Shown here in pieces: positions 6,288 through 8,445 of a stretch of 64,000 bases of DNA (positions within the stretch are counted from its first letter, which is position 1; every line of letters begins with the position of its first letter). Source of the stretch: Nitrospira sp. (GTDB lineage Bacteria; Nitrospirota; Nitrospiria; Nitrospirales; Nitrospiraceae); assembly GCA_037445005.1 (NCBI GenBank), contig JBBILH010000003.1, positions 26,151-90,150 of the forward strand, written 5' to 3'. The position numbers and the translations under genes were made by a program. The notes under the pieces were generated by a model. It was not told where the DNA came from. It worked only from the letters and a program-made list of their open reading frames with translations, and made no database searches.

Positions 6288-7553
6288 CTAGCGGTTCGGA
6301 GCTGACGGCGACAGATGGGTCATGCTGACCGCCTTCACGAATCTAGTATGGCGGACGCTTTCCAAGAACCCCTCAAGGGGATCTGGAGGAGGCGAAGGCA
6401 GTTCGACCGGATACCAGCCTTGATCGACCATTCCCTTACTTCCATGAACTTCCCGAATCATGTGGTCGATGTTTTCCTCGGATGTTCCTTCTTGAAAGGA
6501 CACCCAAAATGTGAATGGTTGCATGGAAGAACCGGAACGTCCTTCGGCCATTTGAGTCATATCCACTTCCGTTTGTTTCTCGGCGGCGGCAAGCCCGGCG
6601 CCTTTGGTCGTCGTCACCTTGGAAACATCGACTCCGGCGGATTTGAGCCGGGTTTTGAGGTCCACGTTGCTGTTCTCCAGCGCCGTCACCTGCTTGGCCA
6701 AGGTTTCGTTGGCCAGAACCAGGCCGTGCAATTCTTTCCGGAACTGTGCCCGTTCTGCTTCCGCCTTGCTCAACAGCACGCGGGTCACGTGTTCGATGTC
6801 TCGATCCCCGCCGTTCTTACGGTCGTCCGCTGCGCGCGACACGGATTTAATCTCTGATGCCGTGCGCTGCTGGGCGGCCGCCATGTCTGCCAGAGATTTC
6901 CGCAGCTGCGCCAGCTCGTCTCGTTGCGACTCGACAAGCTGCCGGTTCGCCGCTTCAGCCTGGGTTAGGCGGTCGATTTGCGCTTCAAGAGCCGCCATCT
7001 CCGTCTCGCCGACGCGTACCGGCTGGGGCTCCCGCGTCGAAGCGAGGTATCGGTCGGCTCCCAACGCCAGCACGGCGCCCGCGAGGACGATTTGGGCCGT
7101 GGCAGTCGCCCATGCCCTGTCCGGATTCCCTCCCGGCCCCTTCTTCAACCCCGCGGCGGCTCGTTTCACCAAGCGCTGGATTCGACTCAACGGGGTCGGA
7201 CCAGAATGGATTGCAAGATTCACGGATCCCTCATCCATCCGGTTGCGCACCTCGAGGTTGAGGGTTCGCCCGGGCAGGTGCACCCGCGACATTCTCATGG
7301 CGCGTTCCGACGCATTGAGCCCTCCGATCAACCGGCCCTCTTCACTCCGTACTTCCACATGATGAATGACATGGCCTCGACAGGTATGGACGAACGAGGC
7401 GTCGGATCGCGCGCCGTCCAAGGTTCCAACCCGCTCGAGGTTCACGAACAGATCCATCCGACCGCCGTCGAGTCGATGCCGATTCCGGATCAGCGAGCGC
7501 AGCCTCTCGATCACATGATCTCGATAGGCCATTATGGGTGAGTCATGTGTCAT
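6288..7553 (-). CDS. Membrane-anchored coiled-coil protein, putative anti-sigma-like partner
   Basis: Hydrophobic segment AQIVLAGAVLALGA, long heptad-rich region, C-terminal FWVSFQEGTSEENIDHMI domain; start overlaps the stop of the upstream gene. Confidence 0.7.
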   Translation of the reverse strand: MTHDSPIMAYRDHVIERLRSLIRNRHRLDGGRMDLFVNLERVGTLDGARSDASFVHTCRGHVIHHVEVRSEEGRLIGGLNASERAMRMSRVHLPGRTLNLEVRNRMDEGSVNLAIHSGPTPLSRIQRLVKRAAAGLKKGPGGNPDRAWATATAQIVLAGAVLALGADRYLASTREPQPVRVGETEMAALEAQIDRLTQAEAANRQLVESQRDELAQLRKSLADMAAAQQRTASEIKSVSRAADDRKNGGDRDIEHVTRVLLSKAEAERAQFRKELHGLVLANETLAKQVTALENSNVDLKTRLKSAGVDVSKVTTTKGAGLAAAEKQTEVDMTQMAEGRSGSSMQPFTFWVSFQEGTSEENIDHMIREVHGSKGMVDQGWYPVELPSPPPDPLEGFLESVRHTRFVKAVSMTHLSPSAPNR

Positions 7554-8445
7554 GGTGGTGATTGCCTCCTCGCGCTGTCCCGACCAGCGCCAGCGTCCGT
7601 CCCTTCACCAGCGGACGGACATGCAGATCGATCTGCAGTTTATCGTCCAATTGGAGTTCCTCCTCCCTGATCGCGCAGACTAGCACACAGCAATCGTGGC
7701 AGAACGGCAAATGCCACGTCCGATAGTCGAATCCATAGTCTTCCCGGAACAGGCTCTCCCATTGCGCGCGCGTGAGACAAGGGTAGCGAGCGGGATCGCT
7801 CTTGCGATAGTGGATTTGCAAGGTGCGGAGGATGCGATCCGTCTCGTGATTCACGCGCTCAGGGAAACGCCGCTGGTCTTGTTCCAATTGGTCCAGATCT
7901 TCATCACTCACACCCGTATCCTCCATTACGCGCTGCCAGCCTGATTCGCGCCATCGCTCGAAATTCTTATAGACGCGCTGGCTTTCCTCCCGATTGATTC
8001 CCAGCAGCTTCGCTACAGAAGTCTGGTTGAACCCGTACAGATGATGGAACAACGCCATCAGCGCATCTCGGCTGAGCACTGCTCGGGAAAGCAGCGCATC
8101 GAGGTATCGGCCCAACGGATGCGTCTGGTCTTTGTGATAGTAGAGGGCGTCGGGCTGGCTGTAGTATCTCGTCACGAAACTTTCCAGCAGGAGGAACGGC
8201 CGGCACGGTACCTCGACCCGCGCACAGATGATGAACCGCTCCACCATCTCATATCCCCAGCGGACGGCGAATTTGTCGTGACCGATGTCCTCCGCCCATT
8301 GACCGGTCTCCCGAAGAAAACGCTTCGTGAGGGCGGTCGCTCGATCCAGTAGCTGAGGCATGGCCTCGACGACGAACTCATCGAATTCCTTTTCGGACGC
8401 CACCACCGTGCCGACATGGCCGGATTGGTTCACCGCATCATGCAT
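7543..8445 (-). CDS. Atypical ECF sigma-factor-like protein with C-terminal HxxxCxxC motif
   Basis: Region-2-like FDEFVVEAMPQLLDRATALT...WAEDI; region-4-like HTH LYGFNQTSVAKLLGINREESQRVY; HLPFCHDCC; GAGGAG RBS before ATG 8445. The ORF is solid; the function is inferred. Confidence 0.55.
   Translation of the reverse strand: MHDAVNQSGHVGTVVASEKEFDEFVVEAMPQLLDRATALTKRFLRETGQWAEDIGHDKFAVRWGYEMVERFIICARVEVPCRPFLLLESFVTRYYSQPDALYYHKDQTHPLGRYLDALLSRAVLSRDALMALFHHLYGFNQTSVAKLLGINREESQRVYKNFERWRESGWQRVMEDTGVSDEDLDQLEQDQRRFPERVNHETDRILRTLQIHYRKSDPARYPCLTRAQWESLFREDYGFDYRTWHLPFCHDCCVLVCAIREEELQLDDKLQIDLHVRPLVKGRTLALVGTARGGNHHHDT

Follow-up and report, generated by a model that had tools for sequence, protein, structure and literature searches.

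The 64,000-nucleotide stretch of Nitrospira sp. DNA analysed here (the window; GenBank assembly GCA_037445005.1, contig JBBILH010000003.1, positions 26,151 to 90,150 of the forward strand) carries on its minus strand a gene, P0001, whose product may be, with roughly even confidence, a highly diverged, Nitrospiraceae-specific regulator resembling the extracytoplasmic function (ECF) sigma factors, which would inhibit itself through a zinc module of the zinc-associated anti-sigma (ZAS) type fused to it in cis. The sigma-like reading is favoured because three independent weak signals, i.e., the predicted fold, a sigma4 profile and a ZAS profile, agree in register. The proposal is partly supported: the architecture holds, and the function is a putative one. 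The gene itself is real, strongly conserved and lineage-restricted, and is near-universal in Nitrospiraceae.

A first-pass annotation made from the sequence had placed an ECF-sigma-like protein with its own zinc motif at 7543-8445, and these coordinates match the gene for a 300 amino acid protein as delimited by the alignment of homologues and the Shine-Dalgarno sequence. The reading frame 7543..8484 (minus strand) is open over 313 codons. The ATG at 8445 was taken as the start because the family alignment and the Shine-Dalgarno sequence AAGAGGAG, located ahead of it at 8460..8453 (minus strand), both favour this codon. The strings quoted in the annotation, FDEFVVEAMPQLLDRATALT and WAEDI, as well as the segment resembling a helix-turn-helix (HTH), are all present in the translation. 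Hydropathy analysis of P0001 yielded no hydrophobic or transmembrane helix (maximum Kyte-Doolittle value 1.1), and the protein is soluble and, according to the structural model, all-helical. The gene and the parts of its product are the following:

7543..8445, minus strand: gene P0001 for the sigma-like/ZAS-like protein of 300 amino acids, ATG 8445..8443, stop codon TGA 7545..7543
8161..8403, minus strand: sigma2-like three-helix region, residues 15-95, suggested by AlphaFold2 helices and collinear Foldseek alignments, with hhalign in the same register
7912..8133, minus strand: sigma4-like four-helix HTH, residues 105-178, suggested by hhalign (P=0.0016) and by Foldseek against 3hug and 5fgm
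7804..7905, minus strand: predicted helical hairpin joining the HTH to the zinc module, residues 181-214, AlphaFold2 predicted local distance difference test (pLDDT) 86-93
7660..7788, minus strand: putative ZAS-like zinc module, residues 220-262, suggested by ligand conservation, the AlphaFold2 helix junction and hhalign (P=1.5e-4)

The full-length protein was modelled with AlphaFold2 from an alignment of 32 sequences, and residues 15-180 were modelled alone from 21 sequences trimmed from the loci, including five divergent members. The full-length model was all-helical with a pLDDT of 78.7. An N-terminal group of helices (18-46, 54-78, 83-95) is followed by a low-confidence linker (96-104), an HTH group (110-122, 126-137, 141-148, 152-177) and a C-terminal part, which consists of the hairpin 181-193 plus 195-214 and the helices 226-234, 239-248 and 250-259. 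In ECF sigma factors, as known from structures of the sigmaE type, sigma2 is built from three main helices and sigma4 from four helices with an HTH. The first two groups of predicted helices fit this pattern. The predicted template modelling score (pTM) was 0.63 for the full-length protein and 0.51 without the C-terminal part, although the pLDDT of the truncated model was higher (87.1). In terms of the models this drop is a weak hint that the C-terminal module fixes the relative position of both sigma-like domains.

Both models, which rest on shallow alignments of 21-32 sequences, were compared by Foldseek with 350,542 PDB chains. The search with the full-length model was uninformative and returned long helical proteins, with a Mycobacterium tuberculosis sigma chain (9m9e_F) at rank 1 at E=1.3. 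For residues 15-180, about 44 of the top 50 matches were sigma-70-family or sigma-mimic chains, mostly ECF sigmas, which bears out by structure comparison the sigma-like fold put forward in the first-pass annotation. The sigma alignments were collinear over both domains, spanned 160-195 columns and reached probabilities of up to 0.82. This value was obtained for SigH (6jcx_F) and BldN (6dxo); SigL (6dv9_F) was matched with E=0.15 and a probability of 0.80, and the other matches included EcfG (5uxx), sigmaE (1or7), SigW (5wuq/5wur), AlgU (8z6g, 6in7), SigJ (5xe7), the PhyR sigma-like domains (3t0y, 2lfw, 9by5), WhiG, FliA and housekeeping sigmas. Chains containing sigma4 only (3hug, 5fgm) aligned over 64-77 columns with template modelling scores of 0.57-0.64 and root-mean-square deviations of 3.2-3.4 Å. 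Chance is not a plausible explanation for such an enrichment of sigma chains obtained with a predicted structure. For the N-terminal two thirds of the protein, a sigma2-linker-sigma4 fold with no sigma1.1 or sigma3 is supported by the modelling.

The conserved residues fall into the same layout. Residues 50-63, W50-x2-D-D-I-x-H56-E57-K58-L-A-L-R62-W63, resemble the ECF region 2.2 motif A-E-D-L-x-Q-E-x-F-L-x-x-W, and a near-invariant loop E-V-P-C-R-P occupies residues 78-83 of the sigma2-like region. R126-D127-A128 lies within the 4.1-like helix of the sigma4-like domain, and the recognition helix S-Q-R157-V-Y159-K160-N161-F-E-R164-W165-R166 is invariant or nearly so. The family was compared by hhalign with an alignment of 28 ECF sigmas, eight from this genome and 20 from other Nitrospirota, using P-values that were calibrated in behaviour across 1,508 open reading frames (ORFs) of the genome. 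This yielded P=0.012 for the whole family, P=0.0046 for residues 15-180, P=0.0016 for residues 104-180 and P=0.04, off register, for residues 15-100. The alignment of residues 15-180 was collinear, with W50-DD-I-H56EK-L opposite A-eD-l-Qe-F of region 2.2 and SRDALmaLFyHlYG..q.qV...LGL...esqRIYKNFeRWR opposite the sigma4 helices and the HTH, the recognition helices aligning with each other. The protein encoded by the downstream partner gene served as a negative control and gave P=0.27 and 0.54 against the sigma and anti-sigma profiles. As far as sequence comparison goes, the profile evidence for a sigma4-like HTH is weak but real, and sigma2 is not supported by it. Of the two sigma regions named in the first-pass annotation, the region-4-like HTH is thus the one that stood at the level of profiles (P=0.0016), and the region-2-like start did not.

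In the C-terminal part the string HLPFCHDCC was found at 7713..7687, and the pattern C223-x21-H245-x3-C249-x2-C252 is as placed by the annotation, with the ligand codons at 7779..7777 (C223), 7713..7711 (H245), 7701..7699 (C249) and 7692..7690 (C252) of the minus strand. These cysteines and histidine are conserved in homologues to an extent that speaks against a chance occurrence: all four are invariant across 32 sequences, and H245, C249 and C252 stay so after inclusion of the most distant members (22-45% identity), C223 being replaced once only, by histidine in the 27%-identical P0140, the most distant member. A Cys/His exchange at the first ligand is typical of ZAS domains. The x21 spacing is kept in all 81 genome-derived family sequences, 78 of which have an extra histidine at x24 (H220), a position occupied by arginine in the window protein. 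The second cysteine of the CC pair (C253) is not conserved, and C81 of the EVPCRP loop is replaced by threonine or methionine in two distant members. The pattern [CH]-x20-27-HxxxCxxC is present in just 9 of the 5,256 ORFs of at least 150 amino acids in the genome.

With 29 canonical ZAS N-terminal domains from Nitrospirota as the reference, hhalign gave P=1.5e-4 to 3.3e-4 and probabilities of 38-51% for the C-terminal part of the family, the aligned stretch being only W-H-L-x-x-C-x-x-C and the next helix. A canonical ZAS anti-sigma of the same genome ranks 6th among 15,378 ORFs for the C-terminal hidden Markov model (HMM). In the AlphaFold2 model helix 239-248 terminates with H245, and C249 and C252 open helix 250-259. 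The Hx3Cx2C signature of class I anti-sigma domains is defined in the same way, as bridging helices 2 and 3 (PMC7406223). A genome-wide search with zf-HC2 (PF13490) at E<=1 found seven ZAS-like loci, the P0001 locus not being among them. The ZAS motif named in the annotation therefore fared unevenly, as HxxxCxxC with its upstream cysteine is there and the profile similarity reaches P=1.5e-4, but the spacing is x21, not x24-26, and zf-HC2 is silent. By profile comparison the ZAS-like HLxxCxxC segment is weakly supported. That it acts as a redox switch is left as a proposal, because anti-sigma zinc motifs are sometimes structural and not sensory, as in RsiW (PMC7406223).

The family is isolated in sequence space. 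In a collection of 5.8 billion proteins 274 relatives were found at E<=1e-3, all of about 280-340 amino acids, all unannotated or "hypothetical" and none with a precomputed Pfam domain; where their source names give a taxon it is Nitrospira, Nitrospiraceae or Nitrospirota without exception. A profile search of the same collection for bridging annotated relatives gave 136 matches, all from the same family and none with a Pfam domain. When 1.84 billion cluster representatives (50% identity) were searched exhaustively with HMMER, only 35 clusters of the family were found, many of them fragments. With no Pfam/NCBIfam match and so few representatives the family does form an unclassified lineage, as had been suspected in the annotation. 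Homologues of about 47-60% identity occur in 206 species-representative genomes, all of them Nitrospiraceae/Nitrospirales, and when 151 genomes were sampled evenly across the phylum, 16 of the 19 belonging to the window's family had the gene, and no genome of another family did. It is single-copy in this sample; in one genome it is split over two contigs. Two paralogues each are present in the seawater metagenome-assembled genome JBDZUK01 and in Ca. Nitrospira bockiana (L026/L041; P0055/P0188). Many members (e.g., L001/P0003) end in a glycine-rich tail with a conserved ...QRLSRTSA terminus, which from its sequence could be a degradation or recognition tag; the window protein is without this tail and ends in GGNHHHDT. 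One divergent member, P0124 (L185, GCA_021603905.1; 39% identical), is located among genes for a STAS-domain protein, PAS histidine kinases, receivers and PRC-barrel proteins, surroundings which suggest, from the gene content, a different input wiring in distant lineages.

Translation of P0001 overlaps with that of a second gene:

6288..7553, minus strand: overlapping downstream partner gene, 421 amino acids, 11-nt overlap with the P0001 gene

In the partner a conserved N-terminal cytoplasmic domain is followed by a single hydrophobic helix of moderate strength (about residues 147-167) and by a long coiled coil that leads to a conserved C-terminal domain; its Pfam matches are of the coiled-coil type only. 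A homologue lies directly 3' of the family gene in 74 of 80 loci (43% identity in L001), and diverges faster than the P0001 family (about 32% vs about 55% identity). By analogy, a single-pass membrane partner with a start/stop overlap is what would be expected if it formed the membrane half of an anti-sigma system. Its N-terminal domain resembles neither the anti-sigma nor the sigma profiles (P=0.54 and 0.27, respectively, the control values given above), so that a role for it as the source of the missing anti-sigma helices found no support. According to the favoured mechanism the C-terminal module of P0001 would bind zinc, fold back onto the sigma2 and sigma4 surfaces and keep the protein closed, taking over in cis the role that a ZAS anti-sigma plays in trans. 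Opening might be brought about by loss of the zinc site, through thiol oxidation or loss of the metal, or by a signal relayed by the co-translated membrane partner. In the opened protein the HTH and the region-2.2-like surface would then engage DNA and RNA polymerase. P0001 and its partner could together be viewed as a two-polypeptide version of the fusions of sigma, ZAS, transmembrane and sensor parts known from the groups ECF48, ECF52 and ECF53.

A further conserved element is found in front of the gene:

8511..8545, minus strand: conserved inverted repeat, lying some 70-100 nt ahead of the ATG of the window gene

The family consensus of this repeat is GGACAAA-N22/23-TGTCCAAT. The pattern [AG]GACAA[AT]-N22/23-T[GA]TC[CGA]A, with half-sites of about CAAyGGACAAA, is present in 66 of 80 Nitrospiraceae loci (L017-L096), where it lies some 90-110 nt upstream of the start with a fixed spacing of 22/23 nt and an invariant core GACAA/TTGTC. 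The window copy has AGACAAA (8545..8539) as box 1 and a degenerate TATCAA (8516..8511) as box 2. The flanks show no covariation of the kind seen in RNA stems. Its spacings do not fit a sigma-70, ECF or sigma-54 promoter, all of which were considered; from the sequence the repeat may serve as an operator, or its two boxes may be -35-like elements of divergent promoters. The strict pattern has 1-2 sites per genome, any extra site being either a second, tandem copy in front of this gene or located upstream of a CheY-like receiver, and a regulon search with it gave too few sites to define a regulon.

Several observations weigh against a self-inhibited ECF-like regulator. A scan of P0001 and 28 family members with Pfam/NCBIfam models gave no match to Sigma70_r2 (PF04542), Sigma70_r4/r4_2 (PF04545/PF08281), the ECF model TIGR02937 and its like, or zf-HC2 even at E<=10. 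The HMM scans proposed in the first-pass annotation (Sigma70_r2, Sigma70_r4_2, zf-HC2) were thus negative in all 28 members tested, the sole leftovers being a sub-threshold HTH_8 (E=0.04) and noise. Genome-wide searches with PF04542 and TIGR02937 found 13 sigma genes, the P0001 locus not among them, and HMMs built separately for the N-terminal, the middle and the C-terminal part and run against the 15,378 genome ORFs revealed neither an enrichment of sigmas nor a paralogue. A profile search of the PDB sequences with the family alignment yielded nothing relevant, and P0001 as a single sequence ranked 64th among the 1,508 ORFs against the ECF profile, i.e., there was no signal without the family alignment. 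Nearly all of the hhalign score came from the sigma4 part, to which the sigma2-like part added essentially nothing. None of the individual Foldseek matches was significant, 0.15 being the best E-value. ECF sigmas recognise the -10 element through a long basic region 2.4 helix; the third sigma2-like helix of P0001, equivalent to 2.3/2.4, has only about 13 residues and no long basic tail. In the zinc module the first ligand is spaced by x21 vs x24-26 in the canonical ZAS domains of the phylum, and C223 was not paired with the canonical first ligand by hhalign. The divergent members outside the core lineage (P0124, P0125, P0128) are without the membrane partner, the upstream repeat has the shape typically bound by dimeric transcription factors and not that of sigma promoters, and the P0001 sequence was found in DNA metagenome runs only and in no RNA-seq runs.

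Taken at face value the negative results might mean that the protein is not related to sigma factors at all and is a lineage-specific helical zinc protein made of small bundles and a generic HTH, its HxxxCxxC having arisen by convergence. This would be in keeping with the failure of every sequence-HMM test, with Foldseek E-values that all exceed 0.1, with hhalign P-values of only 1e-2 to 1e-4 and with the small number of sequences (21-32) behind the models. It is nevertheless very improbable, since about 44 of the top 50 matches belong to one family among 350,542 chains with both domains collinear, which makes chance very unlikely, since fold, sigma4 profile and ZAS profile agree in register, and since the gene context is like that of a sigma/anti-sigma pair.

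The upstream repeat and the poor showing of sigma2 can be combined to a second explanation, which is unlikely: P0001 could be a sigma-derived transcription factor independent of RNA polymerase, whose HTH binds as a dimer to GGACAAA-N22/23-TGTCCAAT upstream of its own operon, with a zinc site used for structure or dimerisation and a repurposed sigma2-like domain. The repeat would suit such a factor, given its spacing fixed in 66 of 80 loci, its invariant core GACAA/TTGTC and its 1-2 sites per genome. The same reading is favoured by the recognition helix of the HTH, which is conserved more strongly than any other segment of P0001, and by the sigma2-like domain, for which profiles give no support and whose region 2.4 helix is truncated. 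Moreover, ZAS-type motifs may have a purely structural role, as that of RsiW does (PMC7406223). However, the collinear fold matches span sigma2 as well as sigma4, and the region-2.2-like motif (W50, H56-E57-K58, R62) is strongly conserved, which suggests that a protein-protein interface has been kept. Nothing ties the repeat to P0001 over another regulator, and half-sites about 28-29 bp apart are unusual for a simple dimer. Returning to the ECF-like regulator, its broadest form is possible though rather doubtful: the family would then be a new ECF-like group overlooked by HMM-based catalogues, a conserved single-copy regulator of Nitrospiraceae with the anti-sigma split into a zinc module in cis and a translationally coupled membrane/sensor protein. 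Redox or metal signals from the cytoplasm and signals from the envelope would converge on this regulator, which would control itself through GGACAAA-N22/23-TGTCCAAT.

The PhyR sigma-like domains among the fold matches (3t0y, 2lfw, 9by5) bring in another explanation, according to which P0001 is a sigma mimic or decoy that makes no productive contact with RNA polymerase and titrates a partner, for example the N-terminal domain of the downstream membrane protein or an anti-sigma, with zinc or redox state controlling the exposure of the mimicking surface. Like the PhyR sigma-like (anti-anti-sigma) domain, P0001 has a degenerate ECF-like sigma2-sigma4 fold that may serve regulation and not necessarily transcription. 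A sequence beyond every sigma HMM is what is expected once the constraints imposed by promoter and RNA polymerase relax, the operon partner is tightly coupled, and one divergent member lies beside a STAS protein and histidine kinases. PhyR-type mimics, however, are still recognised by the sigma Pfam models, whereas the P0001 family is not; PhyR also has a receiver domain and is controlled by phosphorylation, and contains no zinc motif. The recognition helix of P0001 keeps the invariant basic and aromatic residues R157, K160, N161, R164 and W165, suggesting contact with DNA, and no candidate target anti-sigma was identified. A mimic is decidedly improbable on this evidence.

If the ECF-like regulator is kept as the preferred reading, its nearest known counterparts are the ECF48, ECF52 (SCO4117) and ECF53 sigmas of Actinobacteria, which have a C-terminal extension with a zinc finger and one or two transmembrane helices (PMC8999054, PMC5826349). 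IutY is a further fusion of sigma and anti-sigma and is activated by proteolysis (PMC8999054, PMC5826349). The cis-fused zinc module that the first-pass annotation had singled out is therefore less novel than assumed, as the ECF48/52/53 groups already provide examples of a ZAS fused in cis to a sigma (PMC8999054). P0001 shares with these the anti-sigma module in cis and the order of a sigma2-sigma4 core followed by a ZAS-type motif, with the transmembrane and extracytoplasmic part coming next. In contrast to them, the transmembrane helix and the extracytoplasmic part are found on a separate, translationally overlapping protein, P0001 itself having no hydrophobic helix; the sigma core is invisible to any sigma HMM, a helical hairpin of 45 residues is inserted between the HTH and the zinc motif, and the hosts are Nitrospiraceae. 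Regulated proteolysis has been proposed for ECF52, and nothing at P0001 bears on proteolysis. With the class I anti-sigma/ZAS domains (RsrA, RshA, ChrR, RslA, RsiW) the protein shares Hx3Cx2C across a helix junction, a candidate Cys/His ligand upstream and the HL..C..C context (PMC7406223), but its module is C-terminal instead of N-terminal and is fused to a sigma-like protein, has the x21 in place of the x24-26 spacing and is missed by zf-HC2.

CorE-type sigmas sense metal via their own C-terminal cysteine-rich extension with no separate anti-sigma (PMC3107203, PMC4937300). P0001 is like CorE/CorE2 (ECF44/ECF238) in being sigma-like with its own cysteine-containing C-terminal extension, but the cysteine pattern differs, HxxxCxxC being absent from CorE, and the CorE-type proteins are ordinary ECFs detectable by HMMs. 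An assignment of P0001 to the CorE type was rejected because of the different cysteine pattern and because the genome has a separate CorE-like ECF. The latter, of 221 amino acids (G000:C12:32319-32519, minus strand), has a cysteine-rich tail EQCCAIQ...GGCDPCG (CC...CxxC). A CorE-type sigma has also been reported for Ca. Nitrospira defluvii (NIDE1902; PMC3107203). A large reclassification of the ECF sigmas, which makes no mention of Nitrospira (PMC7826278), would not have retrieved the P0001 family because it is HMM-based. The family is not a new principle. What is new is its divergence beyond every sigma and ZAS model, the location of the membrane half on a second protein, the extra hairpin together with the shorter ligand spacing, and its being restricted to, and near-universal in, Nitrospiraceae.

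Nitrospira are the main nitrite oxidisers of soils, waters and treatment plants and include complete ammonia oxidisers; little is known about their gene regulation. In these organisms a near-universal, single-copy, regulator-like gene has been labelled "hypothetical" by every annotation pipeline. If P0001 is a working sigma factor, censuses of ECFs based on HMMs miss whole lineages, and the pair would represent a two-polypeptide intermediate between sigma/anti-sigma pairs and the fused ECF48/52/53, which bears on the origin of these fusions. If it is a sigma-derived transcription factor or a mimic, it would be a case of a repurposed sigma fold. Either way the zinc site, the partner protein and the upstream repeat provide concrete experimental targets in important and poorly understood bacteria.

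Downstream of the gene pair three further genes are located on the same strand:

4545-6233, minus strand: GT20 (trehalose-6-phosphate-synthase-type) glycosyltransferase
2009-3109, minus strand: GT4 glycosyltransferase
659-1999, minus strand: major facilitator superfamily (MFS) transporter

In 7 of 80 loci a GT20 homologue is found close to the gene pair, and the divergent member P0125 is followed by a GT4 gene. The presence of GT20 and GT4 neighbours hints at a link to the envelope or to osmoprotectants. On the other side a small divergent ORF (8664-8834, plus strand) encodes a signal-peptide-like N-terminus and Lys/Glu-rich repeats of the KKEEKKGG type and has no Pfam match; ORFs resembling it occupy this position in about 12 of 73 loci (e.g., L022, L023, L031, L033, L080, L082, L091). 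The window also contains a genuine ECF sigma (9464-10726, minus strand) with Sigma70_r2, Sigma70_r4_2, DUF6596 and a TPR extension, which looks ECF42-like. A YCII-domain gene (11202-11585, minus strand) is located two genes upstream of it, and such a gene is the context described for ECF42 (PMC8999054).

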